From: a virus
Length of the DNA: 64,000 nt
Reading direction: 5' to 3' (one strand)
Virus record (IMG/VR): IMGVR_UViG_3300025536_000013
Span: 1 to 64,000 of that record
Position 1 is the first letter of the stretch. Each line of letters begins with the position of its first letter. Under the pieces are notes generated by a model. That model searched no databases and was not told the origin of the DNA. It was given only the letters and a program-made list of their open reading frames with translations. A program made the position numbers and the translations under genes. Positions 5,152 through 57,732 of this stretch are shown piece after piece.

Positions 5152-5161
5152 GACATGCAAC

Positions 5162-9357: not shown

Positions 9358-9731
9358 ACGACTTCCTCATGCAAGCGACGGTGCTGCTGTTCGTGGCCTT
9401 CGTGTTCGCCTTCGCCTTGTTGTCGGTGTGGTCCGTATCGTTCTGGCTGGCCTCGGCGTTGTTCTCCTTGCTCAACGGACGACGCAAGCCGGATGAGCAC
9501 CAGCCCCGCAAGAAGAAGCGGACATGCCTGCTGCCACCTGACGAGGTGCAGCCGAAGTATGTGGTGTGGGGTCGACGAGAGACCCGCAAGCGCGTGACGC
9601 CCTGGGAGCCCTACTACGTGGGCGACGACCCGGCCATGTTGATCAGCGTTGCCCGTGAGCGCTATCCGGCCCACAAGTACGGTCTGATCCTGCTGCAGAA
9701 CGACCACGACCCGGCGGAACAACGAGCATGA
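9354..9731 (+). CDS. membrane protein
   Basis: The N-terminus has hydrophobic segments LLFVAFVFAFALLSVWSVSFWLASALFSLL followed by a basic stretch. ATGA coupling is present at both ends. Confidence 0.6.
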   Translation: MNDFLMQATVLLFVAFVFAFALLSVWSVSFWLASALFSLLNGRRKPDEHQPRKKKRTCLLPPDEVQPKYVVWGRRETRKRVTPWEPYYVGDDPAMLISVARERYPAHKYGLILLQNDHDPAEQRA

Positions 9732-12372: not shown

Positions 12373-13153
12373 GTTGGAAGTGGAACTGCTCGAAGCCCGC
12401 TGCGTGCTGAACGCGGCCCTTGACCTGGGCACCATCGGCCCGCGCATCGACTACGGCCCCGCCGTGGACGTGCAGTGGGGCGACCCGGTGCCACTGGCAT
12501 CCATGCCCGCTCCCGGTGCGTGGGCAACGAACGGCATCCCGTATCTGGAGGAGTACGACTATTGGTCCCTGCCGCCAGCACTGACGCAGGTGGACGTGTG
12601 GAGCGGTCAGTGGCCGACCTACGTTGGATTGGGCGAGTTCGACCTGGCTCACTTCCACTTGGCAGCCGGGGAGATCAACTACGATTTTGCCTCCCTCCAG
12701 CGGTTCACCCTGCCGCACGCCCAGAGCGTCGGCCTGAGTCTCAGTGGCGGCAGCGTGACGGTCTACCAGGTGGCCTTGGGCTCACTGTGGAGCACGAGCA
12801 CGGCCGATGAGGGGCTGACGTGGGGCGGCTGGCAGCAGGTGGTGAGCCTGAGTAACCCGCCCGCCCCGACCGGCCCCGCTCCAAGCATGGCACCGTTCGG
12901 CTGGCTGGCGGACATGGACGCCTACGAGCCAGGACCGGACTTCGACGGCGACGGCATGGCGGACGCGCCGGGCATCGAGCATCCGCTCTCTGTCTACGGG
13001 ACCATTCTCGCTCAAGACGGCGTGATCCGCGTCGGCTTCGAGTGGAATGGAGAACGCTTCTCCGGGCTGGTGACGGACGGCACGCTCACGACGGAAGCGG
13101 TGGATGCGTTCTTCCTGGAAGGCGACTGGGTGGATGAAGTGGAGGTATGGTGA
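12359..13153 (+). CDS. hypothetical protein with a Planctomycete-style LE..R leader and a DxDGDG motif
   Basis: GGGAG lies 6 nt upstream of the ATG. The N-terminus is RLEVELLEARCVLNAA. FDGDGMAD is a calcium-binding-like loop. Confidence 0.6.
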   Translation: MASTRLEVELLEARCVLNAALDLGTIGPRIDYGPAVDVQWGDPVPLASMPAPGAWATNGIPYLEEYDYWSLPPALTQVDVWSGQWPTYVGLGEFDLAHFHLAAGEINYDFASLQRFTLPHAQSVGLSLSGGSVTVYQVALGSLWSTSTADEGLTWGGWQQVVSLSNPPAPTGPAPSMAPFGWLADMDAYEPGPDFDGDGMADAPGIEHPLSVYGTILAQDGVIRVGFEWNGERFSGLVTDGTLTTEAVDAFFLEGDWVDEVEVW

Positions 13154-43965: not shown

Positions 43966-44097
43966 TTAGAATCCCAGCCAGTCAGCCTCGATGTTGGACT
44001 GCCTGGCGATGTCGAGCAGGGTCGGCAGGCCACGACGCGGGCACTGGCACCAGAACACCCACTCGCCTTCGTGCGTCAGGATGAACACGGAGACCAT
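43966..44097 (-). CDS. 43-aa protein
   Basis: AAGGAGG lies upstream of ATG 44097, which overlaps the csrA stop (TGATG). The translation is MVSVFILTHEGEWVFWCQCPRRGLPTLLDIARQ... It is below the ORF-track cutoff. Confidence 0.4.
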   Translation of the reverse strand: MVSVFILTHEGEWVFWCQCPRRGLPTLLDIARQSNIEADWLGF

Positions 44098-44288
44098 CAC
44101 TGCACCTCCTTGTCGATCCGCTCCTGCACCTCGCTGCGGTGGATCTTCACCAGCGGATCAGCCTCGAAGCCGATCCGTACCCGGCCCATGCGGGTGTCCA
44201 CCGCCGTGACCTTGATCGTCTGCGGCGTCAGGCACGGCGGCACCGTGATGGTGACCGATTCCCCTTCCACGCGATTCAAAACAAGCAC
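44097..44288 (-). CDS. csrA: CsrA-family RNA-binding translational regulator
   Basis: AAGGAG lies 6 nt upstream of GTG 44288. (M)LVLNRVEGESVTI...GRVRIGFEADPLVKIHRSEVQERI aligns with CsrA (MLILTRRVGETL...[22 protein letters not shown]). Confidence 0.8.
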   Translation of the reverse strand: MLVLNRVEGESVTITVPPCLTPQTIKVTAVDTRMGRVRIGFEADPLVKIHRSEVQERIDKEVQ

Positions 44289-44340
44289 CTGCGTCTCCTT
44301 ACCCGCGTGTACCGGATGCGCGGCCCCCGTCACAAGGTTC

Positions 44341-44955: not shown

Positions 44956-45221
44956 GCTTTACTCCCTGCCAACTTGTCCAAGAGCATGTCCTCTATCTTA
45001 CGTGTGAGCTCGTCGTCGTGGCGGATTCTCCGCCGGATTATCATGTACGCAGACTCGCAGCTCCCTTCCTCCCAGAGCTCGATGTCCCGCTTCTCGTTGA
45101 AATCGCCGACAGGAGGAAACGCGTCGATGACCGCCTGGACCCAATCTCGGTGTCGCTCGGCTATGGCGCTCACGACATTTCTGCTACAATAATACATCAT
45201 ACGCATGACTAGCTCCCTCAT
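44952..45221 (-). CDS. hypothetical protein
   Basis: The ORF is 89 aa. Start and stop are coupled on both sides. Confidence 0.5.
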
Positions 45222-45874
45222 GACAAAGACCGAATCAACTCGTCGAGTGCGTAGGCATCGAGCTCAGGAGTCGCGACCTTCTTTGCCTTCTGCTTCAAGA
45301 GCTCCTTGCACTTCCAGCACCGCTCAGAAGTCTTGCTGTTAAACTCGCCACATGCCTTACACAGTTTCATCTTTCGAGTCTTTGGCACGTCCTCAACTGG
45401 AGCCATGGCCCCGGAAGAATTGGTCCTGGCAGCGAGCTCCCGGAGCTTGTCACTCCGCCATTTGAACAAGTGCTTCGCTTCGTCGAGGCGAGACTTGACA
45501 TGAAGCGGGTCGCCGTTGACATGGAGGAGCGCGAACAACCAGTCGAGCTGCTTCTGCGTGAGGTAGCATGGCTCAGCGTGTTCGCGGTTCTTCTGCGGCT
45601 TCTCCGGAGGCAAGCGCGGAAGAGGCCCGTCCTCTGGAATCGGGTCCTTGTTCAAGACCCACTGACCGTCTCGCTGCGAGAACCGCAAAGGCTTCTTGCG
45701 TCCAAGCATGTTAACGAGGAACTCGGACCACGGCTTGCGGTCCTCGTGATGAGCAATGTCGTCATGGGTCAGGAGCTCTGCTCCGGCCACCGGCCCGTTA
45801 ACCTGGTCTAGTATCTCCCGTGGGAGATTGTCGGGATCGTAGAACTCGCGTTTGGGCGTCGGTCGATAGCTCAT
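45218..45874 (-). CDS. hypothetical protein with a C-terminal zinc ribbon
   Basis: The ORF is 218 aa. CKACGEFNSKTSERCWKC is present. Confidence 0.55.
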   Translation of the reverse strand: MSYRPTPKREFYDPDNLPREILDQVNGPVAGAELLTHDDIAHHEDRKPWSEFLVNMLGRKKPLRFSQRDGQWVLNKDPIPEDGPLPRLPPEKPQKNREHAEPCYLTQKQLDWLFALLHVNGDPLHVKSRLDEAKHLFKWRSDKLRELAARTNSSGAMAPVEDVPKTRKMKLCKACGEFNSKTSERCWKCKELLKQKAKKVATPELDAYALDELIRSLS

Positions 45875-46332
45875 GCTGTCCTCCCGGCTTTTGTTAGCCC
45901 ACCGTCATGTAACCAAGAACGGTACTTTACCAGTGCGTGGTCATTCGACTCGAGGTCCGTGCGCCCGAGGCACACGAGACCGACTGCATCAGTAACGTAC
46001 GGGCCTGCACCAGGAACTTTGTCGAGGGTCTTGGCCTGCTCCCACACCCTGGATGCCCGACGAAGGAGCGAGGCCCGTCGATGCTGCAGACCGCACGGCC
46101 TGCAGCAAGCGACGAGGTCGTCGTACTCGGCACTCTGCAGCGCCTGGCGCGACGGCCACATCGACAACATGGCGCGCAGGCTAGTCTCAGCCTGGGCCCG
46201 CGTGGCTCGGCTCAGCAGCACAGAGGCTGCGAACACGCGCCAGGCGCACCCGAGACCAGCTTGCAGTATGATCCCGTCCCAGACTGGCGGAGCCTGAGAC
46301 TCCGCCAGCTGGGACATGAGGACGTGTTTCAT
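45871..46332 (-). CDS. HhH-GPD superfamily (EndoIII/MutY-like) DNA glycosylase-like protein
   Basis: ATGA couples it at 46332. LDKVPGAGPYVTDAVGLVCLG is a helix-hairpin-helix plus Gly/Pro loop. A downstream SNDH supplies a candidate catalytic Asp. Confidence 0.6.
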   Translation of the reverse strand: MKHVLMSQLAESQAPPVWDGIILQAGLGCAWRVFAASVLLSRATRAQAETSLRAMLSMWPSRQALQSAEYDDLVACCRPCGLQHRRASLLRRASRVWEQAKTLDKVPGAGPYVTDAVGLVCLGRTDLESNDHALVKYRSWLHDGGLTKAGRTA

Positions 46333-46574
46333 ATTACCCTGTAGCCTCCGCCGCAAATTTGCCTGGACTCACGAAGCACCCGGAAGATCCGCGGCTCGCG
46401 AGTCACTGGCTTCGGTTCAGTCGATGGACGCGGCTTCTTGACAGTCACCCGCTTCTTGGCCGCGCACCCTTCACACAGTCTCTTCGTGCTCAGCCTCTCG
46501 ACTCCACAACTGGTGCACAGTCCCCGCTTGAGGAGACGAGCCTGCCGGAGCTTCGCAGTCTTACTGGTCGCCAT
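46329..46574 (-). CDS. small basic zinc-ribbon protein
   Basis: The start is ATG 46574. CTSCG...CEGC is present. The sequence is K/R-rich. Confidence 0.5.
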   Translation of the reverse strand: MATSKTAKLRQARLLKRGLCTSCGVERLSTKRLCEGCAAKKRVTVKKPRPSTEPKPVTREPRIFRVLRESRQICGGGYRVI

Positions 46575-46602
46575 GAACACCAACTCCCGGAGACCTTCGC
46601 CC

Positions 46603-46664
46603 AGAGTCAACCGTGACTCCGACCCAGGCACCGCCACCGTGGAGGCGGCCTCCGTGGTGCCCTG
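46603..46664 (-). repeat. structured intercistronic RNA element, copy A
   Basis: The short hairpin is GAGTCA-ACCG-TGACTC. The long hairpin has the inner stem CCGCC-ACCGTGGA-GGCGG (plus-strand spelling). It sits between the stop at 46685 and the start at 46574. Confidence 0.7.
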
Positions 46665-46678
46665 CCGGCCGAAGCCGG
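46665..46678 (-). other. post-stop UUCG-tetraloop hairpin
   Basis: On the - strand RNA it reads CCGGC-UUCG-GCCGG. It starts 7 nt after the stop at 46685. No U-tract follows. Confidence 0.55.
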
Positions 46679-46684
46679 CACCTT

Positions 46685-47563
46685 TCAGAAGGCATCAATC
46701 ACTGCCTGCAGTCGAGCGAGCTTCGCCTTGACTGCAGCACTCTGTTCTGTGGATAGAGCCTCTCCCTCCACGCCATCGCCTGTAGAATCGCCCCGAGGGA
46801 CGACGACCGTGGGCGCTGGGCTCTTGAGTTCGCCGATCGGATACCCACCCTCCAACAAAGCATCGCGGAGGGCGAACCACGGCGCGTCTCCATGCGGATC
46901 CTGCCGAATCGCTGCACAGAGCTGTGGGACTGGGTAGCGGTACGCGTTGGCAAAGCTCGGCGCTCCCTCGGCATACTGGGCGGGACCGTAGTACAAGCCC
47001 CAATGATCGGCGCACACCGGACCGTAGCCTAGAGCCTTGCTCGTCGGATCTTCCAGCGGCATGTTGCAATAGCAGCACCGATTAAGGTCCTTGCTGCACT
47101 GCGCCATGAAGTCCACCGGATCGCCACCGTTGAGCTGGTTGAAGAACGCCCTCTCGGCTGGAAGCAGCTCCCGGCGGTCGTTCACGAGAAAGTTCCCGTT
47201 CACGAAGCACCCGGCGTACTCTTCATTGCCGACGGGGTCCTTGGTTCCTGGGTCCAGCTGACCGGTCTTGAGGCACACGGTGCCACGTCGACTGAGGTAC
47301 AGCTTGAACCGACGGTCCAAGTACGACACGCGAATGGAGGGACGCTTGAGACCCCGCCCGATGGCCACGAGGAAAGAGTCACAGACGAACTGAATGGCAG
47401 TGCCGACCTTCACGGTGTCGCGGCCTGCGCCGCATGCCCGGTGGAGGTGGAACCACAGCCAGTGCTGATCGTTCTCGTGGAGACGGAGGAACTCGTCAAT
47501 AACTTGACGATGAGAGAAGCGGGAGTTGATGATCTCCCCTGTGCGATCGTTTCTGACTTGCAT
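46685..47563 (-). CDS. DUF6011-like protein with a C-terminal TIGR02996-like module
   Basis: CCYCNMPLEDPTSKALGYGPVCADHWG fits the C.C..L..P.S...G.GP.C pattern. The C-terminus has LCAAIRQDPHGDAPWFALRDALLEGG. Confidence 0.6.
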   Translation of the reverse strand: MQVRNDRTGEIINSRFSHRQVIDEFLRLHENDQHWLWFHLHRACGAGRDTVKVGTAIQFVCDSFLVAIGRGLKRPSIRVSYLDRRFKLYLSRRGTVCLKTGQLDPGTKDPVGNEEYAGCFVNGNFLVNDRRELLPAERAFFNQLNGGDPVDFMAQCSKDLNRCCYCNMPLEDPTSKALGYGPVCADHWGLYYGPAQYAEGAPSFANAYRYPVPQLCAAIRQDPHGDAPWFALRDALLEGGYPIGELKSPAPTVVVPRGDSTGDGVEGEALSTEQSAAVKAKLARLQAVIDAF

Positions 47564-47650
47564 TTCACTTGCCTCCCGAGGACCACTGGCCTCATCAGCG
47601 CGGTCAGATGAACCGCGGACCGTGACTCATGGGTCACGGTTTCGGCCTCA

Positions 47651-48094
47651 CTACTGCAACGCCTCCAGCACCTTGCCGAGGTGCAACGGACTGAAGTCTC
47701 GGTACCAGATCCGCAGCTCCGTCTGAGATCGATTGGTCAGCCGCACCCTTGCGAACCGATCATCCCACGACAACACGCGGCCGAGGAGGCCGGCGTACCG
47801 TCGCGGTCGATAGTGCATCGGGAGACTGACCAGCGTGCCAGCTGGAATCGAAGCATGGAGCTTGGCAGTCTCGGCGAGGTGCTCTTCGTTCTGGATGTGA
47901 TTCTGGCGCTTGCGGATGGCTTGGGCTAACTTTGGCAGCTCGACATCGTAGTCTCCGCTCGCGACAGCAGCGAGCATGGTCCGGAGCTCGGGCCACTGGC
48001 CTTGCTCCAAGAGTGCATCTCGCAGGGCGAAGAGGCAGTCCTCGCCGTTGGCATATGCGGCGAATAGGTCTTCGATCACTGGGACACCTCCCAT
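47651..48094 (-). CDS. protein with a TIGR02996-like N-terminal module
   Basis: IEDLFAAYANGEDCLFALRDALLEQGQWPE is present in a 147-aa ORF. Confidence 0.55.
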   Translation of the reverse strand: MGGVPVIEDLFAAYANGEDCLFALRDALLEQGQWPELRTMLAAVASGDYDVELPKLAQAIRKRQNHIQNEEHLAETAKLHASIPAGTLVSLPMHYRPRRYAGLLGRVLSWDDRFARVRLTNRSQTELRIWYRDFSPLHLGKVLEALQ

Positions 48095-48348
48095 CCGTGC
48101 CTTCGTGCCCAGCGCCTGAGCTCAGCTACAGTCTTCTTGACTGCTTTGCCGTCATCGACCGGAGTCTTGACGCTGACATGACGTGCCTGAAGCGTGTGTT
48201 CGAGCACAGACGTCTTGCAACGCTCGGAGAATTGACGCTTGGCGTCTTTCAGACTCGATGCCCTGACGACGTCATAGCATCGAACTGCTTCCGTGCCATC
48301 GGTCCATCGCTTCCAGAACGTGATGCAATATGTCTTGTTCATCTTCAC
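48076..48348 (-). CDS. hypothetical small protein
   Basis: GGGAGGTAAGTGAAG lies upstream of ATG 48348. The ORF is 90 aa. Confidence 0.5.
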   Translation of the reverse strand: MKMNKTYCITFWKRWTDGTEAVRCYDVVRASSLKDAKRQFSERCKTSVLEHTLQARHVSVKTPVDDGKAVKKTVAELRRWARRHGWEVSQ

Positions 48349-48371
48349 TTACCTCCCTGCAGCTCTCAGCA

Positions 48372-48428
48372 GTGACACCCTCGTGTCACTCCCAGGTCCG
48401 CCACCGTGGAGGCGGCTGCATAGGACCC
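48372..48428 (-). repeat. structured intercistronic RNA element, copy B
   Basis: The short hairpin is GTGACAC-CCTC-GTGTCAC. The long hairpin has the inner stem CCGCC-ACCGTGGA-GGCGG and the outer stem GGTCC/GGACC. Confidence 0.7.
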
Positions 48429-48432
48429 GAGC

Positions 48433-48450
48433 CCGCGGCCGAAGCCGCGG
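48433..48450 (-). other. post-stop UUCG-tetraloop hairpin
   Basis: On the - strand RNA it reads CCGCGGC-UUCG-GCCGCGG. It starts 9 nt after the stop at 48459. Confidence 0.55.
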
Positions 48451-48458
48451 ACCATCGA

Positions 48459-48968
48459 CTACTTCAGAGCGGCGAGCAGCTTCTGGAGCTCCTCGGCCTG
48501 CTTCTTGAGCTCAGCCTTCTGCTCCGGGGTGTAGCTCTTCGCCGCCTCGGTGCGCTCCTCGGGGCTCATCTTGCTGAGCTTGAGGAGTTCGCTCTGGCCA
48601 CCGGCGCGCGGGGCGCGAGGCGCCTTGCCGATCTCGACCACCTCGACGCCCGCCATCTGCATGAACAGCGGGCCGATGTGGATGTTGCCATGCGCCACCG
48701 TGAAGTACGTCCCCTTCTCGATGCCCTTCGGCACGTTGACGCGGAAGGCCCGGGCCGGACCCTGCGTCCGCTTGCTTGCCTCGGCGACGGCCTCGGCCTC
48801 GGTCTTGAAGAATGCCGGCCAGCTCTCGATGGCGGGCCGCGCCTTCTTGCCGGGCTCCTTGGCCTTGTTCGCATCGACGGCAGCCTTCGCGGCGTCGACA
48901 GCGGCCTTGGCGGCATCGGTGGGGTTCGCGACGTTGGTGGACATGCTGGACTTCTCCTGCTTTGCCAT
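48459..48968 (-). CDS. hypothetical K/A/E-rich protein
   Basis: GGGAGGTAAGTACC lies upstream of ATG 48968. The ORF is 169 aa. Confidence 0.55.
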   Translation of the reverse strand: MAKQEKSSMSTNVANPTDAAKAAVDAAKAAVDANKAKEPGKKARPAIESWPAFFKTEAEAVAEASKRTQGPARAFRVNVPKGIEKGTYFTVAHGNIHIGPLFMQMAGVEVVEIGKAPRAPRAGGQSELLKLSKMSPEERTEAAKSYTPEQKAELKKQAEELQKLLAALK

Positions 48969-48995
48969 GGTACTTACCTCCCAGAGAGCCTCAGT

Positions 48996-49057
48996 CACCG
49001 AGCGAAGTGCTCGGTGTCCAGGGACCGCCGACGTGGAGGCGGCTCTCTATGGTCCCC
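48996..49057 (-). repeat. structured intercistronic RNA element, copy C
   Basis: The short hairpin is CACCGAGC-GAAGT-GCTCGGTG. The long hairpin has the inner stem CCGCC-GACGTGGA-GGCGG and the outer stem GGGACC/GGTCCC. Confidence 0.7.
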
Positions 49058-49125
49058 ATGGGGCTATTGCCCCTGACTCCGTAAAGCATCTCGGAGTCTC
49101 TGCTTGTCAGGCGTGACGCGCCTGG

Positions 49126-49139
49126 ACGCCCGAAGGCGT
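49126..49139 (-). other. post-stop UUCG-tetraloop hairpin
   Basis: On the - strand RNA it reads ACGCC-UUCG-GGCGU. It starts 8 nt after the stop at 49147. Three more hairpins follow before copy C. Confidence 0.5.
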
Positions 49140-49146
49140 TTCGACC

Positions 49147-49398
49147 TTAGTTCCTCGAGTCGTGGCCGGTGGCGCGCCAGAGGTAGTAGGGCAGGGTGCT
49201 GCCCTTGCCGGCGTCCGGGCAGCCGTAGTAGGCCCGGATGTCGGACCACGACATGTAGGTGCGCATGTCGTCGATCATGTCGCCGACCCGGACGCACTCG
49301 GACAGGCTGCCGAACCGGTCGATCATCAGCTGAGACACGCAGTGGGTCGTGGTGGAGGGGCGGGTGGAGCGAGTGTAGATAGTGCGATTGCGGAACAT
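49147..49398 (-). CDS. hypothetical small protein
   Basis: The ORF is 83 aa. It is the first gene downstream of the long non-coding control region. Confidence 0.5.
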   Translation of the reverse strand: MFRNRTIYTRSTRPSTTTHCVSQLMIDRFGSLSECVRVGDMIDDMRTYMSWSDIRAYYGCPDAGKGSTLPYYLWRATGHDSRN

Positions 49399-49426
49399 AG
49401 TAGTGTCTTCCCGAGAGTCTCAGTCA

Positions 49427-49486
49427 GTGACACACCCGTGTCACTGTCCAGGGATCGCCAACGTGGAGGCGACTCTCATGATCCCC
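49427..49486 (-). repeat. structured RNA element, copy D (in the leader of 49398)
   Basis: The short hairpin is GTGACAC-ACCC-GTGTCAC. The long hairpin has the inner stem TCGCC-AACGTGGA-GGCGA, a compensatory change relative to CCGCC/GGCGG. The outer stem is GGGATC/GATCCC. Confidence 0.7.
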
Positions 49487-49800
49487 TACCGTGCTGGGCG
49501 CACGGCGGGAGGAAGTAAGTGTTTGTTGAGATCACACCTGCCCGTACCATCAGGCCCTTGCACCTTTGTGTCCCTCTCGTCGGGGAGCGGTTGGATGGGA
49601 CCCCATCACCCGCTCGACCCTCAAGGGTTTCCAGTGTTCCAGTGTATCGGACCGAGATCGTGTGGAGGGAGTTCCCCTTTCACAGCTCCTCGGGCCCTAA
49701 CTCTGGGGCTCCGGTGTGATCAAGTTGTCAAAGATACAGTCGTGACCCGTCAGGGTCCCCGGTTCTCACCCCGGGTAGTGTGTTGTTCTCTTCTACCTCT

Positions 49801-49828
49801 ATCCTACCACACCCTGGTGGCGTGTCAA
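49801..49828 (-). promoter_or_regulatory. sigma70-like promoter P1 (leftward)
   Basis: The - strand reads TTGACA-N16-TAGGAT. It is one of two about-30-nt direct repeats that share CCAGGGT in the spacer. Confidence 0.45.
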
Positions 49829-49882
49829 GTGTTTTGTCGTCTTTTCCTCCGGGTCGTGTTGTCGTCTCATCACTACATCCCT

Positions 49883-49910
49883 ATCTTATCACGACCCTGG
49901 GGGATGTCCA
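49883..49910 (-). promoter_or_regulatory. sigma70-like promoter P2 (leftward)
   Basis: The - strand reads TGGACA-N16-TAAGAT. It is the direct-repeat partner of P1, 82 bp upstream. Confidence 0.4.
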
Positions 49911-50003
49911 ACGGAAAATATGATTTGTACAGAAAATTTTAAGCTGTTACAGGGTAATGACTTAGGTCAAATATCCAGCTCAAACCAAGACTCGAACCAG
50001 AGA

Positions 50004-51065
50004 TCATCTTGACCCCTTCTTTCGATAGAATCGAGTCACAACAACAGAGTTATACTTGTTGATATGTTCTCCGCCAACCCTCTTGAACCCACGGGGGACT
50101 CGATCTTCCCATCCGCCGTGGAACTCGACGCCGAGTGACCGAACGCCAGACCAATCGCCGTCCCAAAAACCTGGCAAGCTCTCTGAACCCTCGACGTCGA
50201 CCTTGACCACGGTCGGCTTGAAGCACGCAAGCAGCCCCGCAAGGTCCACCTTCTGAACGCGGACCCGTGACCCCGGGCGCTCTTGCGCCGAGCGCTTGTA
50301 GGTGAGCCGAGGGTCGGAGTCGACGTAGATGGCGTCGGAGCCGACGGCGGCTTGTATCAGTGTGCCATTGGGGTTGTTCATCCGATACAGTCGTGCATTC
50401 TCGGCATCGGGTTCGACGCCTATGCTGCGAGCCGGACACCACTGGGCAAAGTATCCGGCGTGGGCGCCGAGGTCAAGGACCACGTCGTCCGAGCGGATGT
50501 CGAGATGACACCACTCCGGCTGCTCGGCCCTGATGTTCAAGTCCACGGTGCCCGGTCGATACCAGCTACCTTGGCTCCAAGCGTACTTGAGCCGACTCAA
50601 GACCGCGGCCTCAGCCTCGTCAACTGATGCGACTTGCACGTGGTCAAAGTCGCGTATCACCTGTCGATAGCGCTCGGCAACTCTCAGCAGGGCCTCGTCG
50701 TCGAATTCCTCCGCACCTCGGGCTCGGCGACGTCGAAGCAGTTCTTCGTCTCCGGGGTCGAGGAAGAGGACTAGCAGGTCTTTGTCCCAGAACCCGCGTT
50801 GCTCGCAGCTCGGCTCGCGGTCGAACACCGAGTCGTACACAGCTGATGTCACTGGCCCGAATCGATCGCAGACATAGAGCTTGTCGGGATCATAGAGACA
50901 CTTCCATAGCTCGAAGCACATGTTCCCAGCCACTGCCTGCTGGTGGAAGTCTGCACCACGCGGGCTACGGTACTTCACGTGCGCAGCCCACGGCAGACGC
51001 TCGCAGAGCTCTCTCCACAGAGTCGTCTTTCCGGAGCAATCACATCCTTCGCACGCTACGATCAT
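50004..51065 (-). CDS. thymidylate-kinase-like (d)NMP kinase fused to an FkbM-family methyltransferase
   Basis: The N-terminus MIVACEGCDCSGKTT fits the ExxDxxGK(S/T)T P-loop of dTMP kinases. The C-terminus VVLDLGAHAGYF...VEPDAENARLY...VKVDVEGSE fits the FkbM pattern. ATGA couples it to the upstream gene. Confidence 0.7.
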   Translation of the reverse strand: MIVACEGCDCSGKTTLWRELCERLPWAAHVKYRSPRGADFHQQAVAGNMCFELWKCLYDPDKLYVCDRFGPVTSAVYDSVFDREPSCEQRGFWDKDLLVLFLDPGDEELLRRRRARGAEEFDDEALLRVAERYRQVIRDFDHVQVASVDEAEAAVLSRLKYAWSQGSWYRPGTVDLNIRAEQPEWCHLDIRSDDVVLDLGAHAGYFAQWCPARSIGVEPDAENARLYRMNNPNGTLIQAAVGSDAIYVDSDPRLTYKRSAQERPGSRVRVQKVDLAGLLACFKPTVVKVDVEGSESLPGFWDGDWSGVRSLGVEFHGGWEDRVPRGFKRVGGEHINKYNSVVVTRFYRKKGSR

Positions 51066-51997
51066 AGCAGCTCCTTCAGCGCAGCAAGGCCTTTGGAGTA
51101 AGACTCAGCACGCACGGTCTCTAGGGTCCGAGCCAAGGGCTCAAGCGCCTGGACCAACCGACCGCGCCGATAGAACCCGGCGCCGAGGTCCTTGTAGCAA
51201 GGTTCGTCGCAACAAATGGCCGCAGCTCCGCTGGCAATGGCCTCTCGCACTCCTGCACCGCCGGCCATGTCGTCCTTCATCGAACAGACGACGTAGCGCA
51301 CGTCGCGCAGAAGGGCGAAGTAGGACTCGCGCGTCGGGCAGCTGAGTATTTCCACATGTGGACTGGGCTCATGCTTCTGGAGATACCCTGACGGATCAGT
51401 CAACACGAATCGTGCCCTGCCTCTGAGGGCCTCCGCGGCAGCAACGAACTCCCGATGGCCAGAGTAGTCGCTAGCCGAACAGCGGTGAGAGAATAGAAAG
51501 TCGACCGGGCGCCACAGCACCTCCTCGTCGTTCCAGTTGAACGAACACACGTGCGGCTGCACGCCAAACAGTCTCTGCACGACGTCACCAACGGTCTTGT
51601 TCATGACCGCCACGGCATCAGCAGCCTCGAGGCTATCTCGCTGCCGATCGAGCATCCAGGTGTTGATGCCGAGAGGAAGGAGATGGTTGACTTGCACGAC
51701 GCGTCGAACACTCCGCTTCAGGACTGCGGAGTCGAGCTCGCGGTGGCTGATCAGTGCGTCAATGCCAGCGAGATCGAGTCGCGGGAGCTCCAGTCGCTGT
51801 GTGCGGTTGTCCGGCGGAATGTCGATGCGCCTCAACTCGACGCCGGGAGGATCGTAGCTAGCCCCGTTCGGCCAGAAAAGGACTGCCCCGAGCTTGCGCG
51901 CCTGGTACGAGGCCATGCGGCTCACACAACAGACGTCGGTGAGCTGTACGCCGGTGTTCTTGTCTTGGACGGAGAAGAAGGGGAGGACGGCGATCAT
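51062..51997 (-). CDS. GT-B-fold (GT1/GT4-like) glycosyltransferase candidate
   Basis: AGGAG lies upstream. The C-terminal ...VVCSMKDDMAGGAGVREAIASGAAAICCDEP resembles the E..G....EA.A.G.P motif of GT-B enzymes. Support is weaker than for the other calls. Confidence 0.45.
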   Translation of the reverse strand: MIAVLPFFSVQDKNTGVQLTDVCCVSRMASYQARKLGAVLFWPNGASYDPPGVELRRIDIPPDNRTQRLELPRLDLAGIDALISHRELDSAVLKRSVRRVVQVNHLLPLGINTWMLDRQRDSLEAADAVAVMNKTVGDVVQRLFGVQPHVCSFNWNDEEVLWRPVDFLFSHRCSASDYSGHREFVAAAEALRGRARFVLTDPSGYLQKHEPSPHVEILSCPTRESYFALLRDVRYVVCSMKDDMAGGAGVREAIASGAAAICCDEPCYKDLGAGFYRRGRLVQALEPLARTLETVRAESYSKGLAALKELL

Positions 51998-52092
51998 TCG
52001 TTGTTTCTCCTGGGTTTTTATAAAATCTTGATTCTCGAATCTGATGATCCTCTCATCTCATCACGGCCGGAGTGATTATAAAAATCCTCAGA

Positions 52093-52533
52093 TTACTTTG
52101 TATGAATTGGGGATAGACCGAAGAGGGGAGATCGATCCCCAGAGAGGTTTTTACAAAGTTCAAAGCGTCCGAGACTGAAGAGCAAGAGACCTCGGCCCTT
52201 TTTGAGGAACCCGAGTAGACTGAGCATGTCCGCGGCTCCATACTCTCGGCCACTTTTTGCCAGACCAAGGTCCACCAGCCTATGGTGTCTCAGCTGAGTG
52301 ATAGACCCGAACTCAGCTGCGTGACACTTACGCAAAACGCCTGTAGCAAATCCAGAGTCATATCGGAACAATGCCTTTGGTCGTCCGGACTCTCGACACG
52401 AGACCAAGACATCATGTCTCACCGCAAATCCAAGTCCCTCTAGGGCGTCTACAGCTCCGTATTGATATGGAGCCGAAGTCTTTCTGAGCTCGAACCGAGA
52501 CGCGAGTTCTTTTACTGTCAGCAGTTCAACCAC
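52093..52533 (-). CDS. hypothetical protein (lower GC)
   Basis: AGGAGG lies 7 nt upstream of GTG 52533, which overlaps the HNH stop. The ORF is 146 aa. Confidence 0.45.
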   Translation of the reverse strand: MVELLTVKELASRFELRKTSAPYQYGAVDALEGLGFAVRHDVLVSCRESGRPKALFRYDSGFATGVLRKCHAAEFGSITQLRHHRLVDLGLAKSGREYGAADMLSLLGFLKKGRGLLLFSLGRFELCKNLSGDRSPLFGLSPIHTK

Positions 52534-52969
52534 CTAACAGCCTCCTCAGCTTCCTCAACCTGACCTCGTCCACCCCTGCAGCCTCGCTCACCCTGAGCAG
52601 CTGTCGAAGCCACCGTTTGCTCTTGTTCTTAAGCCCGAGCCTCTCTGCGTCTGCTAGCCGAGCTGCGCCTTTCATAGCCCTACCCTTGAGCACCTTGTCC
52701 CGGTGGTTGTCTGCCCGCGAGCCGAGAAACACGTGCTCAGGCTTCACGCACTCCGGATTGTCGCACCGATGACAGAGACACAGCACAAAATCCACCGCTG
52801 GATACGCCGATAACATCAGCCCGCGGAGCTCGGCCCTGAGTTCTGGCATCTCCAGACACTCGTCCTCTGCTCCCAGTCCCAACGCTTCGCCGAAACACGA
52901 CACCGTGGGCGTCGACTCCTGGGGCACGAGCACACGATGGGCAACAGCGGCCATCACTCTATCCTTCAA
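52526..52969 (-). CDS. HNH homing-endonuclease-like protein
   Basis: CLCHRCDNPECVKPEHVFLGSRADNHRD matches the HNH_3 signature. It abuts the 3' end of the polymerase gene. Confidence 0.8.
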   Translation of the reverse strand: MKDRVMAAVAHRVLVPQESTPTVSCFGEALGLGAEDECLEMPELRAELRGLMLSAYPAVDFVLCLCHRCDNPECVKPEHVFLGSRADNHRDKVLKGRAMKGAARLADAERLGLKNKSKRWLRQLLRVSEAAGVDEVRLRKLRRLLGG

Positions 52970-55900
52970 GGACCTTCCCCCTCAGCGCCCGGGCGCACTC
53001 GAATTGCTTCACAGGCTTCGTCCAATACGGAGCCCTAACCCCCTCGACCAGCAACGGAAAATCCGGTGCCCAATCGGGTGGCTCGGACATTATCGACAGC
53101 ATCTTATGCAACTGGTCCGACTCGACAACGATTTCGTCGTGGACATGCATGCACGGGTTGAGGCCTTCAGCCTCGAATCGCACAAGAGCATGGGCCATGA
53201 GGTCTCGGCAGATTGCCTGCACCGCGTTCTCGCAGTTATGCACGATGACTGGACCGTATTCAGTCATCACCGTGTATCGGTGTCGCGGTCCACAGTTGAG
53301 AAGATCATATACAGGAGAGATTCCCATATAAGACCACAAGCTGTTCTGGAGTGGCGCCTTTTTTGAGGTAAGAGACGAGTGTATTTGGGCTCGCTTTCCA
53401 TGGACCGCCTTTCCGAAGGAACATCGCCAGTGGTATCGGTTTCCCCCCAAAGACAACGTATTTTGTACGACGTGTGTTGTTTGTGCTTTCGTTCGGAGTG
53501 ACCATACGGACATTTCCCGGTTCATAGTGTCCGTCGTTGTCTGTCCTATCGAGCCATAAGGACAAATCGTCGAATCCTGGTATTGTTGTGATGTACATAG
53601 CAAACGCTTCAAAACTCTCTGTCCATTCCTGATAAACTTTGATGCCCCTTGCACCGTAACGATCCCAAGCTTGATCAGTCTCATTATTGCAGCGTCGTAT
53701 GATGTCTGCCCATGCACGATGCCACCGCACATAGAGCTTATGAGTCGCGAAGCCTGTTTGTTCGAGTAAATTGACAATGCGTTTTTGTTCTCTGTATCGC
53801 TTTGCACAGCCAGTTGTACAGTATCTTCGTCCTTTTCCTTTTCGCAAACCGCCAAGATTGACAGCAACAGCTTCTCCACAGATGCACGTGCACCCGACAA
53901 CGTAATTATTGTATCCGAGTCTAATCGGCTCTGTCTGCACGACCAAGGCATGGAACTTGCTGCCGATCTTAGGCACCGCAACGTAGCATCTGCGTCCAAG
54001 CGAATCACTGACTTCCATCTCATACCATCGTGAATCAAGTGGTCTTCTGTGACTGCTACGCCCAGCCATGTGCCTATCTCCCTTTCTCCGTTGTACACAT
54101 ATCCATCTGTCTTGACCCAAGACCCACCATCCCACACCCTATCTTGCGCAGTGACGCTAACTATCGATTTGATGCCGTGGTCAGTCAGTATCTTTGTCTC
54201 CGGACCAAAACAGAGACTCCCGCCATAAGTTCCGCGTCGTTGTCCGTGCGGATGGAGAAACGTCACTGTGGGCACAGTCATCACGCGGCCCATTGCCACA
54301 GCCCACTTCGGCGTCAGGTCCTCGATTCGCACGTCGCGGTAGTAGAGGCGCCGCCCGCTCGGCAAGCGTATGACCATATTGTCGGCTTCGCGGTAAAAAT
54401 CGCACCGACCGACGTGGGTCGACATGCCGTGCCGGACGCACGCCATCGCCGCGTCACCAAACTGCTTCCATAGTCGAGGTATATTGGGGAATGTATCTCG
54501 ATACTTCTTGACAAGTGCTCTAGACTCTTCCTCGCCCATAGTGAAATCTCGGCGGAGCTTATCGCCGGAGTGGCTGGACATGAAGCGGTCGAAAGCTCTC
54601 TTGAAGCCAGCCCAACTGAGGCCGTAGCCGCAGCCCAACACAATCTGCTTCGACACGACTCGCTCCCACGAGTCCTTGTTCGGCTTGAAGCCATAGAGGT
54701 CCGTCGCGAACTCGATGTACACGTCCTTGTCTTGATCAGCGAAGGTGTTGAGCAGCCGATCCTCGCGCGCGAGCCACGCGACTCCGCGAGCCTCGACTGC
54801 AGAGTAGTCGGCGATGCAAAGATCACCGCGGACACATCCACGAGTCAGGCAGTTGATCACCGCGCCCACGGTGCAGCTCTGAGCAGAGTTAGTCTCTCGC
54901 ATCTTGGCAGTCGTCTTGTCTGCCGCCTCTCGAAGTTTGTCGTAGTCGAGAACGCTGGACAGCAGTCCAGGCACGTCGACGTGAACTAACGGAATGGGAA
55001 AGTTCTGCGGCTGCAGTTGTCGGCCGGCCCATCGGCCAGTGTGGGCTCGGTGGTACACGTGCTGATCGCGCACTCGACCGTCTTCCTCCAAGGCAAGCAT
55101 CATGGCGAGCTTATTGCCGCCGGTCCGCACTAGCTCGTTGCGGAGCACCAAGATGTCCTGGAGTCCCGCAAAGGCATCGGGGCACTCATCAGGCTCGCCG
55201 AAGTAGAACTCCTCGGGCTTCTGGAATAGCTCGAACATAGCCGGCCGACTGATAGACGTGAGCTTAAATCCACGGGCCTCGAGCCAGCCAGTCATCTGCT
55301 TGTGCGAGCGCGGGTTGACGCTGCTGGTGAGCTCGTCGAACTCCGCGCCGGCGACGGACATGTTGTAGTCGTACAGATTGCGCAAGTGCTGCACGAGCGG
55401 CTTGCAGATGGGGATGCCACGGTCGTTGATCTTGACGTCCACGTCGAGCACGTCTGGCTCGTCGACATCCTTGACTTGGCTGTAGACTTTCTCCAACAAG
55501 CGCACATCTCGACGGCAGTACTCGACGAACTGATTCCACACCTGGTCGTTGCCCACGAAGTACTGCGGCACACCGTTGCGGATCTTGACCTTGCTAATCA
55601 TGTCGATGAGCATCGAGCCAGTTTTGTCCTTGCCGCGACCCTCCAAGAGCTTGCCGAGCTCGTCGAGCCGACCAGGGAGACCTTTGGCACGAGATGCTCG
55701 GACTGTGTCGAAAAACGTGGCCGGTTCGCCTACGAACTTCTCCCATGCGAGCGAGTCGAAGTCTGCATTGTGCGCACAGAGCGTTCGCTCTTTTGCTGCA
55801 CTGATGTAGGCCTGTGGTACAGGCTCTCCTTGTCGCCACACGTGGTCGACTCCGTCGACGCTCAGCACACAGCAGGCAAGCCGAGTCGACTCGTCCGCAA

Positions 55901-55994
55901 AGTACCGTCTAGCCCCGTGTTCAAGGTTGTTGGTACTCATCGTCTCGAAGTCGACGAATGCAACTTTGTCGCCTGGTTTCCAGTTAGTCTTCAT
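52959..55994 (-). CDS. family A DNA polymerase with 3'-5' exonuclease domain, interrupted by an intein
   Basis: AAGGAG lies upstream. The exonuclease motifs are FVDFET and AHNADFD. The polymerase motifs are DLCIADYSAVEAR, SKQIVLGCGYGLS and VHDEIVVE. The extein junction is TYGGSL|intein|CENAVQAICRDL. Confidence 0.9.
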   Translation of the reverse strand: MKTNWKPGDKVAFVDFETMSTNNLEHGARRYFADESTRLACCVLSVDGVDHVWRQGEPVPQAYISAAKERTLCAHNADFDSLAWEKFVGEPATFFDTVRASRAKGLPGRLDELGKLLEGRGKDKTGSMLIDMISKVKIRNGVPQYFVGNDQVWNQFVEYCRRDVRLLEKVYSQVKDVDEPDVLDVDVKINDRGIPICKPLVQHLRNLYDYNMSVAGAEFDELTSSVNPRSHKQMTGWLEARGFKLTSISRPAMFELFQKPEEFYFGEPDECPDAFAGLQDILVLRNELVRTGGNKLAMMLALEEDGRVRDQHVYHRAHTGRWAGRQLQPQNFPIPLVHVDVPGLLSSVLDYDKLREAADKTTAKMRETNSAQSCTVGAVINCLTRGCVRGDLCIADYSAVEARGVAWLAREDRLLNTFADQDKDVYIEFATDLYGFKPNKDSWERVVSKQIVLGCGYGLSWAGFKRAFDRFMSSHSGDKLRRDFTMGEEESRALVKKYRDTFPNIPRLWKQFGDAAMACVRHGMSTHVGRCDFYREADNMVIRLPSGRRLYYRDVRIEDLTPKWAVAMGRVMTVPTVTFLHPHGQRRGTYGGSLCFGPETKILTDHGIKSIVSVTAQDRVWDGGSWVKTDGYVYNGEREIGTWLGVAVTEDHLIHDGMRWKSVIRLDADATLRCLRSAASSMPWSCRQSRLDSDTIITLSGARASVEKLLLSILAVCEKEKDEDTVQLAVQSDTENKNALSIYSNKQASRLISSMCGGIVHGQTSYDAAIMRLIKLGIVTVQGASKFIRNGQRVLKRLLCTSQQYQDSTICPYGSIGQTTTDTMNREMSVWSLRTKAQTTHVVQNTLSLGGNRYHWRCSFGKAVHGKRAQIHSSLTSKKAPLQNSLWSYMGISPVYDLLNCGPRHRYTVMTEYGPVIVHNCENAVQAICRDLMAHALVRFEAEGLNPCMHVHDEIVVESDQLHKMLSIMSEPPDWAPDFPLLVEGVRAPYWTKPVKQFECARALRGKVLEG
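53235..54212 (-). mobile_element. intein (326 aa) in the DNA polymerase
   Basis: The N-terminus is CFGPETKILTDHG (block A). GVAVTEDHLI is the TxxH block B. The C-terminus is VYDLL...GPVIVHN followed by Cys+1. It is in frame with the exteins. Confidence 0.8.
53305..54069 (-). CDS. homing-endonuclease-like ORF nested inside the intein in a different reading frame
   Basis: AGGGAG lies 8 nt upstream of ATG 54069. WHRAWADIIRRCNNETDQAWDRYGARGIKVYQEWTESFEAFAMYI...LDRTDNDGHYEPGNVRMVTPNESTNNTR matches a widespread phage family usually annotated as HNH/homing endonuclease. Confidence 0.6.
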   Translation of the reverse strand: MAGRSSHRRPLDSRWYEMEVSDSLGRRCYVAVPKIGSKFHALVVQTEPIRLGYNNYVVGCTCICGEAVAVNLGGLRKGKGRRYCTTGCAKRYREQKRIVNLLEQTGFATHKLYVRWHRAWADIIRRCNNETDQAWDRYGARGIKVYQEWTESFEAFAMYITTIPGFDDLSLWLDRTDNDGHYEPGNVRMVTPNESTNNTRRTKYVVFGGKPIPLAMFLRKGGPWKASPNTLVSYLKKGATPEQLVVLYGNLSCI

Positions 55995-56065: not shown

Positions 56066-56257
56066 TCACGCGGCCTCAACTTCCTCCGCCTCAGCCTCTG
56101 CATAAGCAGCCAAGGCTTCGACGTCGGACTTCAGGGCAAGGACCTTGTCCCAGGCATCGTGGGACTTAGCCTCCTCTGGAGCCTCGTCGATGACTGCCTG
56201 CAAGAGTCCGTTCGCCTCGTCGCACACGGACCGCAGACGATCAAGCCATTCACTCAT
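56066..56257 (-). CDS. small acidic protein
   Basis: GGGAGG lies upstream of ATG 56257. The ORF is 63 aa. Confidence 0.5.
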   Translation of the reverse strand: MSEWLDRLRSVCDEANGLLQAVIDEAPEEAKSHDAWDKVLALKSDVEALAAYAEAEAEEVEAA

Positions 56258-56448
56258 GACGCTACCTCCCTGCAGGAATCCGCCTGCTGCGGTGCGGCAA
56301 GAGCCGCATAGAAGTCGTGAAGGACGGTGAACGCGGCTTTGGGGACTGGGCGCCCAGCCTCGAAGGAATAGACATACTGTCGATTGACGCCAAGGCTCTT
56401 AGCAACGATCTCGGGGGTCATGCAAGCGCGTCGTCGAGACGAGATCAC
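56254..56448 (-). CDS. XRE-type HTH protein
   Basis: ISSRRRACMTPEIVAKSLGVNRQYVYSFEAGRPVP fits HTH_3. The frame stays open and HTH-like further upstream, but there is no ATG/GTG/TTG there, so the start is uncertain. Confidence 0.5.
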   Translation of the reverse strand: MISSRRRACMTPEIVAKSLGVNRQYVYSFEAGRPVPKAAFTVLHDFYAALAAPQQADSCREVAS

Positions 56449-56590
56449 ACGACCGAGTTCTCGCGGCTCCAGGCACGTGAGTCGTGTCCGGAGTTCAGAC
56501 TTCGCGATGGCGACGAGTTCTTCCAGCTGTTCCGTTGTGAGATCCCTGATGCTGTGCTACATAGACGCTGACCAGTACATCACCACTACC

Positions 56591-56848
56591 CTAAAGGGTA
56601 GGGGAAGGGGGAAACAGAGCGCCAGCCATAGATTCAAACATGCGACCAGTGCATTCGATCATGGCCACTTCGCCGTTGGGCAGCTGGGCCATGAGCGCCA
56701 CGCTCGTTCTGCCGCCTTCGGTGCCGCACTGTAGCACCGCGAAATGGCTCAGTATTGCCTCTACAATCTTCTTGTCAGCCAAGTCGGGGAACAGTGGCCC
56801 ATAAGCCTGTGCGTTCACGTCCTGAATCTTCACTATCACCGGATTCAT
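56591..56848 (-). CDS. hypothetical protein
   Basis: AGGAGG lies upstream of ATG 56848. The ORF is 85 aa. Confidence 0.5.
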   Translation of the reverse strand: MNPVIVKIQDVNAQAYGPLFPDLADKKIVEAILSHFAVLQCGTEGGRTSVALMAQLPNGEVAMIECTGRMFESMAGALFPPSPTL

Positions 56849-56858
56849 GGCGGTCCTC

Positions 56859-57131
56859 CTAGAATGGAAGCGGTTCCCCTGGCGGCTGACCTAGCTTCTT
56901 GTTGCATTTGCCACAGGCTAACACGCATATGCCTTGCGCCCAATCGCCGGCATAGAGGCGGATACGTCGATGACGGCTAGTCTTTGTTGGATTCCAGTTT
57001 ACCCTTTTGGTGTGGTGGAATTCAAGTAGCCAATGGCGTGTCTCGCGGCAATAGCGGCAGCGCCCGCCCATGAGAGCGATGAGCAGGGTGCGCTGTGTGG
57101 CATAACGACGGTTGTCAGCACGCCGGCCCAT
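56859..57131 (-). CDS. HNH endonuclease domain protein
   Basis: The start is ATG 57131. GGRCRYCRETRHWLLEFHHTKRVNWNP...CGKCN is an HNH-type CxxC..HH..CxxC pattern. Confidence 0.6.
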   Translation of the reverse strand: MGRRADNRRYATQRTLLIALMGGRCRYCRETRHWLLEFHHTKRVNWNPTKTSRHRRIRLYAGDWAQGICVLACGKCNKKLGQPPGEPLPF

Positions 57132-57265
57132 AGGTAGACAGTATCCTCTCGGCTGGGACTCATGGTCCGCTCTTGTCCGATACGATAGGCCGCCCATATC
57201 GCATCGCGTAGGCGTTTGGGCAGCTTCATCCAATGCGAGTAGCAGCCCCATAGAGCTGGCGGCAC
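56999..57265 (-). CDS. ORF whose N-terminal ~45 aa look genuine; possible frameshifted N-terminus of the HNH gene
   Basis: GTG 57265 gives MPPALWGCYSHWMKLPKRLRDAIWAAYRIGQE, the HW..LP..LR..IW..Y pattern seen in phage proteins. After about 57135 the frame becomes A/S-rich junk while the -1 frame carries the HNH domain. Confidence 0.35.
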   Translation of the reverse strand: MPPALWGCYSHWMKLPKRLRDAIWAAYRIGQERTMSPSREDTVYLWAGVLTTVVMPHSAPCSSLSWAGAAAIAARHAIGYLNSTTPKG

Positions 57266-57468
57266 TAGCTTTGTATGTCCTCAAGGAATTCGTCGCCGCG
57301 TATCATGCCTTTGCAAGTGCATTGCATAGCCGTGGACTGAACGTGGAAGGACAGCGGCACCGTACCTGATATTATCCACCGTCTGTCTCCCTAAAGCCAT
57401 TGCGGCTCTGTCTCTGAGAATAGCTGCTGTTTCTTCTTTCCACACTTAAAACCCCCCTGGCGTCGTTG

Positions 57469-57732
57469 CTAGGTGTTGAGCGCTTCGTCGATCCTTCTGG
57501 CGAACTCTATCGCCTGTTCTACTGACTTCGGCGTGCCTAGAAGCTTGTACTTCTCGCACATCTGCCCTCTACGGGCAACGTTCGGCTCCAGACAGATCGC
57601 TCCGAACAAGGAGCACGTGTGACCCTCTGGCAAGTGCCCGAGGCCGACGAACATCTGCTTGTCAATCACCACTTGACTGACCCCGTCGAATATGCCGCCT
57701 AGGTCCGTTATCGGCACGCTCGACAGCAGCAT
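57469..57732 (-). CDS. hypothetical protein
   Basis: AAGGGGG lies upstream of ATG 57732. The ORF is 87 aa. Confidence 0.5.
   Translation of the reverse strand: MLLSSVPITDLGGIFDGVSQVVIDKQMFVGLGHLPEGHTCSLFGAICLEPNVARRGQMCEKYKLLGTPKSVEQAIEFARRIDEALNT

Follow-up and report, generated by a model that had tools for sequence, protein, structure and literature searches.

The DNA analyzed here is a window of 64,000 nucleotides (nt), positions 1 to 64,000 of the IMG/VR virus record IMGVR_UViG_3300025536_000013. It is a segment of a phage genome, carrying genes for a portal protein, a family-A DNA polymerase, thymidylate synthase and kinase, and CsrA. Transcription is from the - strand over the interval of about 40000 to 64000 and for 6 kb beyond the window. 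Within this interval, the - strand encodes four paralogous elements of about 75 nt, located ahead of the starts at 49398, 48968, 48342 and 46574; they are called D, C, B and A, respectively (Table 1). A fifth element of another kind is located between the gene of a 142-aa protein and that of a 292-aa DUF6011 protein, the latter placed between the fifth element and copy A. We propose that the four paralogous units are hepatitis delta virus (HDV)-like self-cleaving ribozymes, with a type II hammerhead ribozyme as the fifth element, and that the five punctuate a single early polycistronic RNA, an interpretation that we hold to be likely.

The core sequence CGCCTCCACGNNGGCG is found exactly four times in the 64-kb window, always on the - strand (46632, 48399, 49026 and 49456), with no further exact match therein, and an independent repeat finder recovers the identical four-copy family, whose units measure about 71-75 nt. 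The existence of a four-copy structured element, claimed in a preliminary description of this DNA, is thereby confirmed. That description could not assign the element to any named RNA family. An E-value scan of Rfam, however, matched all four units over the full length of RF00094, the HDV ribozyme (model positions 1-89), and matched RF00094 nowhere besides them. Since the printed RF00094 structure line holds nested pairs only (P1, P3 and P4), leaving P2 and P1.1 unscored, the presence of these two helices in the units is independent of the Rfam match.

The nested double pseudoknot P1/P2/P3/P1.1/P4 is recognized in canonical order by a structural descriptor in the four copies. P1 consists of 6-7 base pairs (bp), the first of which is the G1•U wobble next to the cleavage site; this pair (6-44) is G•U in all four copies. 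In every unit a J1/2 junction of 1-2 nt leads into the 5' strand of P2. P3 has 3 bp, GCC/GGC, and encloses the loop L3 UCCACGNN, the HDV equivalent being GCC-UCCUCGCU-GGC; GCC-UCCACGNN-GGC is invariant in the four units, and so are the U that closes the P1 3' strand and the GG behind it. L3 keeps the equivalents of U20, C21, C22, C24 and G25, and the C21 and C22 equivalents pair, as P1.1, with the GG that follows the final U of the P1 3' strand. P4 is a variable hairpin of 8-9 bp. The J4/2 junction reads CUGA in B, C and D, and CGAA in A, as in HDV, all of them fitting the C-N-R-A context of the catalytic cytosine, which is predicted just 5' of the P2 3' strand. This strand of 6-8 nt comes after J4/2, and P2 bridges about 55 nt. 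The two pseudoknots, P2 and P1.1, were found in all four copies. On every structural criterion examined the units belong to the HDV-like family, only the Rfam score threshold being missed, and as judged from their sequence the structural and catalytic-core determinants of both ribozyme families at this locus are intact.

The stems of the preliminary description are recovered within this fold, although as parts of an HDV-like structure: its outer stem is P1, its inner stem is P3 plus one flanking pair, and its short hairpin is P4. What had been read as one long hairpin is in fact P1 (6-7 bp) and P3 (3 bp), two separate helices with a strand between them whose partner in P2 lies far downstream. 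This pseudoknot had been overlooked, and the CUGAG..CUC taken for a leader motif is instead the catalytic junction J4/2 followed by the P2 3' strand. The pseudoknot-free three-way junction obtained by minimum free energy (MFE) folding was likewise superseded, as it corresponds to P2, P3 and P4 of the HDV fold without P1.

Covariation was analyzed on a gapless alignment of the four copies (A2), registered by hand to the structure. The double pseudoknot comprises 29 pairs, and 112 of 113 cells are paired (99.1%). Compensatory changes on both sides were found in 18 of the 29 pairs (three of seven in P1, six of eight in P2 and all nine in P4), P3 and P1.1 being invariant among the copies. None of 500 shuffles reached any of the observed measures of covariation or pairing, and when the partner was slid by 1-3 columns just 30-45% of the cells paired. 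Hence, the covariation of the stems noted earlier is borne out. Because eight of the cells are G•U, including the invariant G1•U, the fold is specific to the - strand RNA; a strand-specific and covarying fold agrees with the functional structured RNA that had been suspected.

The HDV descriptor, whose sequence constraints are only the CC in L3, the U-GG after P1 and C-N-R-A, selected exactly the four sites when both strands of the 64 kb were scanned, and ten shuffled windows gave no site. On 1.8 Mb of other loci it selected six sites only, all on IMG/VR phage contigs and read as ribozymes: two of them follow tRNA 3' ends (theta-type), and those of L034 and L075 are followed by a Shine-Dalgarno (SD) sequence and a start codon, the order in the unrelated phage L075 being stop codon, 54 nt, an HDV-like ribozyme (drz), SD and ATG. 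A covariance model built from the four copies, a check that the preliminary description had recommended together with the Rfam search, scored 68-79 bits on the copies with filters off, the next-best site in the window having 14 bits; no fifth HDV-like copy was thus detected in the window. Scanning of metagenomes with a 19-nt core gave at least 117 heterogeneous matches. None of the 117 listed can form P1, P2 and J4/2 together, which provides an empirical null, and as relatives of the units they were rejected: among the matches listed P1 and P2 cannot be formed, and they are chance matches. The single IMG/VR match to the exact 19-nt core was also discarded, being inside a GluRS-like coding region that adjoins a prophage.

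The region 47564-47650 had been described as a degenerate copy of the repeated element. Instead, it holds a complete type II hammerhead, recognized by RF02276 and by a hammerhead descriptor that found this one site only in 73 kb. Read 5' to 3', the element is composed of GGCC-GAAA, stem III (CCGUGAC/GUCACGG), UC, stem I (CGCGGU/ACCGCG) and CUGAUGA-GGCC, with cleavage predicted after the C of UC, C17, at 47618. The core CUGANGA / GAAA / U-H, closed stems I and III, an open stem II and the G10.1-C11.1 and A15.1-U16.1 pairs are all present. The RF02276 match was obtained in a small-region Rfam scan and is filtered out in larger scans, and its score of 25.3 bits lies below the gathering threshold of 37. 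No further ribozyme was found in the 9 kb upstream of the window (L247), and the other long operon gaps, 56200-57500 and 51950-52560, gave no Rfam family at E<=1.

Table 1. Coordinates of the predicted ribozymes, hairpins and promoters in the window, and of predicted ribozymes in related phages (contig coordinates). Window features are on the strand given.
Feature	Position	Strand	Score or folding energy	Composition and remarks
HDV-like ribozyme D	49412..49486	-	RF00094 28.3 bits; own covariance model 78.9 bits	G1 49486; predicted cleavage 49487/49486; P1 GGGGAUC/GAUCCCU; P2 (U)GAGAGUC/GACUCUC(G); P3 GCC/GGC; L3 UCCACGUU; P4 CAGUGACAC/GUGUCACUG; J4/2 ACUGA, predicted catalytic C 49423
HDV-like ribozyme C	48983..49057	-	RF00094 32.1 bits	G1 49057; P1 GGGGACC/GGUCCCU; P2 AGAGAGCC/GGCUCUCU; L3 UCCACGUC; P4 CACCGAGC/GCUCGGUG; J4/2 ACUGA, predicted catalytic C 48994; SD GGGAGG from 48982
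HDV-like ribozyme B	48358..48428	-	RF00094 21.4 bits	G1 48428; P1 6 bp GGGUCC/GGACCU; P2 UGCAGC/GCUGCA, or 7 bp with bulged A; L3 UCCACGGU; P4 AGUGACAC/GUGUCACU; J4/2 GCUGA(GA), predicted catalytic C 48369; SD from 48357
HDV-like ribozyme A	46588..46662	-	RF00094 35.1 bits, E 0.012	G1 46662; P1 GGGCACC/GGUGCCU; P2 CGGAGGCC/GGUCUCCG; L3 UCCACGGU; P4 UCGGAGUCA/UGACUCUGG; J4/2 GCGAA as in HDV, predicted catalytic C 46599
Type II hammerhead	47588..47647	-	RF02276 25.3 bits, E 0.0021	Full-length match with all core bases; also hammerhead descriptor; SD GGGAGG at 47577-47572
Hairpin before D	49489..49505	-		CCGUGC-GCCCA-GCACGG; ends 2 nt before the D cleavage site
Four consecutive hairpins before C	49060..49139	-	-40.3 kcal/mol	Between the stop at 49147 and ribozyme C
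UUCG hairpin before B	48430..48453	-	-20.6 kcal/mol	10 bp; ends 1 nt before the B cleavage site
UUCG hairpin before A	46663..46680	-	-13.9 kcal/mol	UGCCGGC-UUCG-GCCGGCA; last base is position -1 of ribozyme A
Sigma70-like promoter	49910..49883	-		TGGACA-16-TAAGAT; TG-extended -10
Sigma70-like promoter	49828..49801	-		TTGACA-16-TAGGAT; TG-extended -10
L249, type II hammerhead	11195-11251			Directly after the DUF6011 gene, then SD-ATG
L259, type II hammerhead	10814-10876			Directly after the DUF6011 gene
L259, twister-P5	11120-11186			Above Rfam gathering score
L259, twister-P5	11788-11855			Above Rfam gathering score
L259, type II hammerhead	12369-12435			
L251, L252, L253, type I hammerhead	9581-9635 (L251)			Directly after the gene of a 63-aa protein

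A stable hairpin ends 0-4 nt upstream of the cleavage site in all four HDV-like copies, and this is a more consistent feature than the UUCG hairpins after stop codons that had been emphasized before; the latter do occur ahead of A, B and C, where they start 5-11 nt past the stop. The hairpin before A would form the 3' end of the cleavage product upstream of that ribozyme, and stem III of the hammerhead has the same role for its own upstream product. In the series of hairpins before C the first has a UUCG loop (49126-49139), and 2 nt separate the last one (49060-49073) from the cleavage site. This spacer (49058-49146, - strand), with -40 kcal/mol over 92 nt, exceeds what a 3'-end hairpin needs, and it matches no known family. 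On the other side of the ribozymes, the P2 3' strand adjoins the SD, with a gap of 0 nt in B and C and an overlap of 1 nt in A and D, and the hammerhead ends 10 nt before its SD. The string GGGAGGYAAGU is present in exactly three copies, after B, after C and after the hammerhead; it is a ribosome-binding site (RBS) cassette that lies outside the ribozyme, and the relatives of this phage carry a repeated RBS cassette of their own.

The 605-nt gap upstream of D contains an AT-rich stretch (49915-49990) and, downstream of it, the two sigma70-like promoters in tandem. The promoter scan returned 3 sites against 0.6 expected, and the -10 box GTGRTARGATAG, common to both promoters, occurs only there. 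The tandem promoters at 49801-49910 are probably, as candidates read from the sequence, the start of the ribozyme-punctuated transcript. The leader that would be removed by D has two further features. A box of 13-16 nt, (G)ATCTTTGACAACT, is found in the 5' leaders of three phages (49722-49735, - strand, in the window; 9830-9842 in L249; 9650-9665 in L251), with no matching -10 element; it could be an operator or an RNA motif, a conserved leader RNA being rejected since the box alone aligns between the phages. In addition, a possible GTG open reading frame (ORF) of 66 aa (49519-49719, + strand) follows the SD-like GGGAGGAAGUAAGU, antisense to the leader that D is predicted to cut off; as - strand RNA, GGGAGGAAGUAAGU reads as the anti-SD-like ACUUACUUCCUCCC, just upstream of D.

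An HDV-like unit folds into a nested double pseudoknot in which the J4/2 cytosine and Mg2+ catalyse cleavage immediately 5' of G1, and a hammerhead is cleaved 3' of H17; both reactions leave a 2',3'-cyclic phosphate on the upstream product and a 5'-OH on the downstream one. In the model that we propose, the five ribozymes would be carried by one early polycistronic - strand RNA, probably initiated at the tandem promoters. The cuts would release a leader of 308 or 390 nt (removed by D), units of 429 nt (83-aa gene), 629 nt (169-aa gene), 811 nt (88-aa and 142-aa genes) and 955 nt (DUF6011 gene), and a distal remainder. At its 3' end each unit would be protected by a hairpin, and its 5'-OH end would carry a compact ribozyme fold, or stem I of the hammerhead, beside an exposed SD. 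Both ends would thus be shielded from exonucleases and from 5'-monophosphate-dependent RNases, each RBS would be insulated from its upstream context, and the stability and expression of neighbouring cistrons would be uncoupled. The predicted outcome is that the four elements and the hammerhead most likely cut the long transcript into mostly single-gene messages. Among the three functions contemplated at the outset, the RNase processing or stability module came closest, except that processing is most likely autocatalytic and not carried out by an RNase. Since 5'-OH and 2',3'-cyclic phosphate ends are substrates of RtcB-type ligases, the 429-955-nt units could even be circularised into exonuclease-proof, SD-bearing circular mRNAs, the interchangeable classes (HDV-like, hammerhead and twister) being then a general device for operon punctuation and circular mRNA production; we give this extension only a very small chance of being correct.

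The homologues of the 292-aa DUF6011 protein are 36-50% identical to it, and eleven loci encoding them (L249-L259), which represent seven distinct phage contigs, were fetched and scanned. Ribozymes predicted in these relatives sit in stop-ribozyme-SD-ATG positions (Table 1), and in L259 four of them bracket three or four genes (10814-12435). The slot directly after the DUF6011 gene is occupied by a hammerhead in two relatives and by the HDV-like copy A here. Predicted intercistronic self-cleaving ribozymes recur in this phage group, and their class is interchangeable, which speaks for the cut itself being what is selected. In L257, a few genes downstream of the DUF6011 gene, lies a gene (5050-6666) for a Ro60/TROVE-vWA protein, a factor of RNA quality control that binds RNA.

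This interchangeability also bears on whether the folds cleave at all. Decayed relics, stabilisers of the 5' untranslated region or platforms to which CsrA binds at the GGA of J1/4 and of the SD would all retain the ribozyme shape without cleavage, in keeping with the sub-threshold Rfam scores, with a CsrA being encoded by this phage and by its relative L249, and with the UGGA and GGGAGG motifs that flank P4. We consider such inactive folds very unlikely: the catalytic-core positions are all intact in the four copies while the helices diverged by compensatory change, which indicates selection on the active fold, and the unrelated ribozyme classes at equivalent sites in the relatives share cleavage, not shape. 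The preliminary description named first another role without cleavage, in which the CCUCC of the loop would pair with the downstream GGAGG and sequester the SD. The two motifs are indeed complementary and separated by about 50 nt, and part of the SD region is engaged in the MFE folds of A and D. Yet in the HDV family CCUCC forms the P3/L3 catalytic core, and HDV itself, which lacks an SD, also has it (GCCUCCUCGC); the motif is therefore no evidence for an evolved anti-SD. Moreover, two of its cytosines are used by P1.1, the MFE folds of B and C leave the SD free of pairing, and sequestration does not explain P1, P2, the G1•U, the C-N-R-A junction and the hammerhead of the neighbouring gap, all of which makes it very improbable.

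Processing sites for host RNases, intrinsic terminators or put/nut-like antiterminators are suggested by the intergenic location of the elements, by the GC-rich hairpins after the stop codons and by the repetition between early genes, which recalls the RNase III sites (R-sites) of T7. Nevertheless, RNase III needs a continuous duplex of about 20 bp (some two turns), and the helices here have 3-9 bp; the UUCG hairpins lack a U-tract behind them, and the terminator scan called no terminator-like site there; and the HDV family accounts fully for the double-pseudoknot core. The antiterminator suggested earlier has no support. We regard this group of explanations as extremely improbable. The conserved 16-nt core in four intergenic regions might also suggest promoters, operators or recombination sites acting as DNA, an idea to which we attach next to no weight: the eight G•U cells, including the invariant first pair of P1, become A·C mismatches on the other strand, the long-range compensatory changes (about 55 nt apart in P2) have no rationale at the DNA level, and the sigma70-like promoters are elsewhere, at 49801-49910.

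The interpretation of the elements as active ribozymes has to be balanced against several points. The four RF00094 scores (21-35 bits) are below the gathering score of 50, which is a curation threshold and not a structural criterion. Copy B has a P1 of only 6 bp and two extra nucleotides, or a bulged A, at the J4/2-P2 boundary. The covariation comes from only four paralogues of one genome in an alignment fitted by hand to the structure, and the relatives that were scanned (eleven loci, seven contigs) yielded no HDV-like orthologue. The promoters are consensus matches only, and the promoter rules of the host may differ. Finally, cleavage is predicted from sequence, and from it we infer the effects on mRNA stability and translation.

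The same phage is present in the assemblies ENA ERZ27300258 and Logan SRR6213120. No close relative was found in INPHARED or IMG/VR: blastn of 45000-52000 against INPHARED returned nothing, the polymerase had only matches of 25-27% identity in IMG/VR, and the 169-aa protein had no match in IMG/VR and no homologue among 5.8 billion proteins. The host is probably a Planctomycete, as suggested by distant relatives and by protein names (TIGR02996, a Rhodopirellula metagenome-assembled genome). The CsrA homologue is encoded at 44097-44333 (- strand), that of the relative L249 at 3411-3608, and candidate targets of CsrA are the GGA motifs of the SDs and of the ribozyme junction J1/4. Immediately upstream of the promoter and ribozyme region, a 353-aa fusion protein (50004-51065, - strand) joins an N-terminal P-loop kinase (thymidylate-kinase / AAA_33-like) to a C-terminal FkbM-type methyltransferase. 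The family-A DNA polymerase (52959-55994, - strand) has an insertion of about 320 aa (aa ~595-915) that is absent from a 54%-identical relative; as the insertion ends in VIVHN directly before a C and has an endonuclease-like PHROG match, it probably represents an intein that includes a homing endonuclease. On the + strand, an int-alpA RNA (RF02996; 22286-22351; 37.5 bits, above the Rfam gathering score) is placed directly upstream of a 1039-aa ORF with a head-maturation-protease domain.

The kind of RNA described here is known, and it occurs here in an unusually tidy, mixed-class array with an HDV-like majority that would punctuate a phage operon; within the limited coverage of the searchable literature we found no description of an HDV-like ribozyme array in that position. 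With five predicted ribozymes of two classes in 2.9 kb, each between a 3' hairpin and an SD, the locus constitutes a compact natural test case, and the interchangeability of classes opens the idea of a ribozyme-punctuated operon to a direct test. The results would extend full-length, P4-containing HDV-like ribozymes to the mRNA leaders of a high-GC phage that probably infects Planctomycetes. Ribozyme-dense loci have earlier served for the discovery of new ribozyme classes.

The units share with the HDV-like family (genomic and antigenomic HDV, CPEB3, drz-Fpra and the Ackermannviridae drz; RF00094, PMC13635239) the order of helices, the G1•U, the GCC/GGC P3, the C-N-R-A J4/2 and the length. In L3 they differ from HDV at one conserved position, with A23 instead of U23. 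They also depart from the family in scoring below the Rfam threshold and in their arrangement, four paralogues in 2.9 kb of a phage operon, each between a 3' hairpin and an SD, with activity that is predicted. The theta ribozymes, minimal HDV-like ribozymes of gut Caudoviricetes, are likewise phage-borne (PMC10879173), and L3 UCCACGNN is common to tRNA-adjacent examples in IMG/VR (L020, L043 and L083, the L043 copies being read by eye). However, P4 is missing from theta ribozymes, whose cleavage is mostly at the 3' ends of tRNAs, although 'isolated' non-tRNA copies with unknown function are also listed (PMC10879173), whereas the units here have a P4 of 8-9 bp and precede protein-coding genes. 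Identity with theta ribozymes, as defined by the absence of P4 and by cleavage within ±5 nt of a tRNA 3' end, was ruled out, given that P4 is present in all copies and that ARAGORN detected no tRNA in the window. The closest arrangement is that of the hammerhead and twister arrays of prophages, in which several ribozymes also bracket single genes or short gene blocks and for which the processing of single-gene mRNAs has been proposed (PMC3088659; PMC6765202). Hammerhead arrays flanking prophage genes cleave in vitro transcripts of about 2 kb of native polycistronic RNAs (PMC3088659), and ribozymes are found in clusters and close to phage genes, with roles that are largely elusive (PMC6765202). 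The array at this locus differs from them in being mainly HDV-like, with one hammerhead. RiboJ, an engineered insulator based on a hammerhead-type satellite ribozyme, is located directly upstream of an RBS, where its self-cleavage detaches the upstream RNA, so that the message starts with a structured 5' end followed by an accessible SD. The elements described here have the same placement before the RBS, but they are natural and HDV-like.

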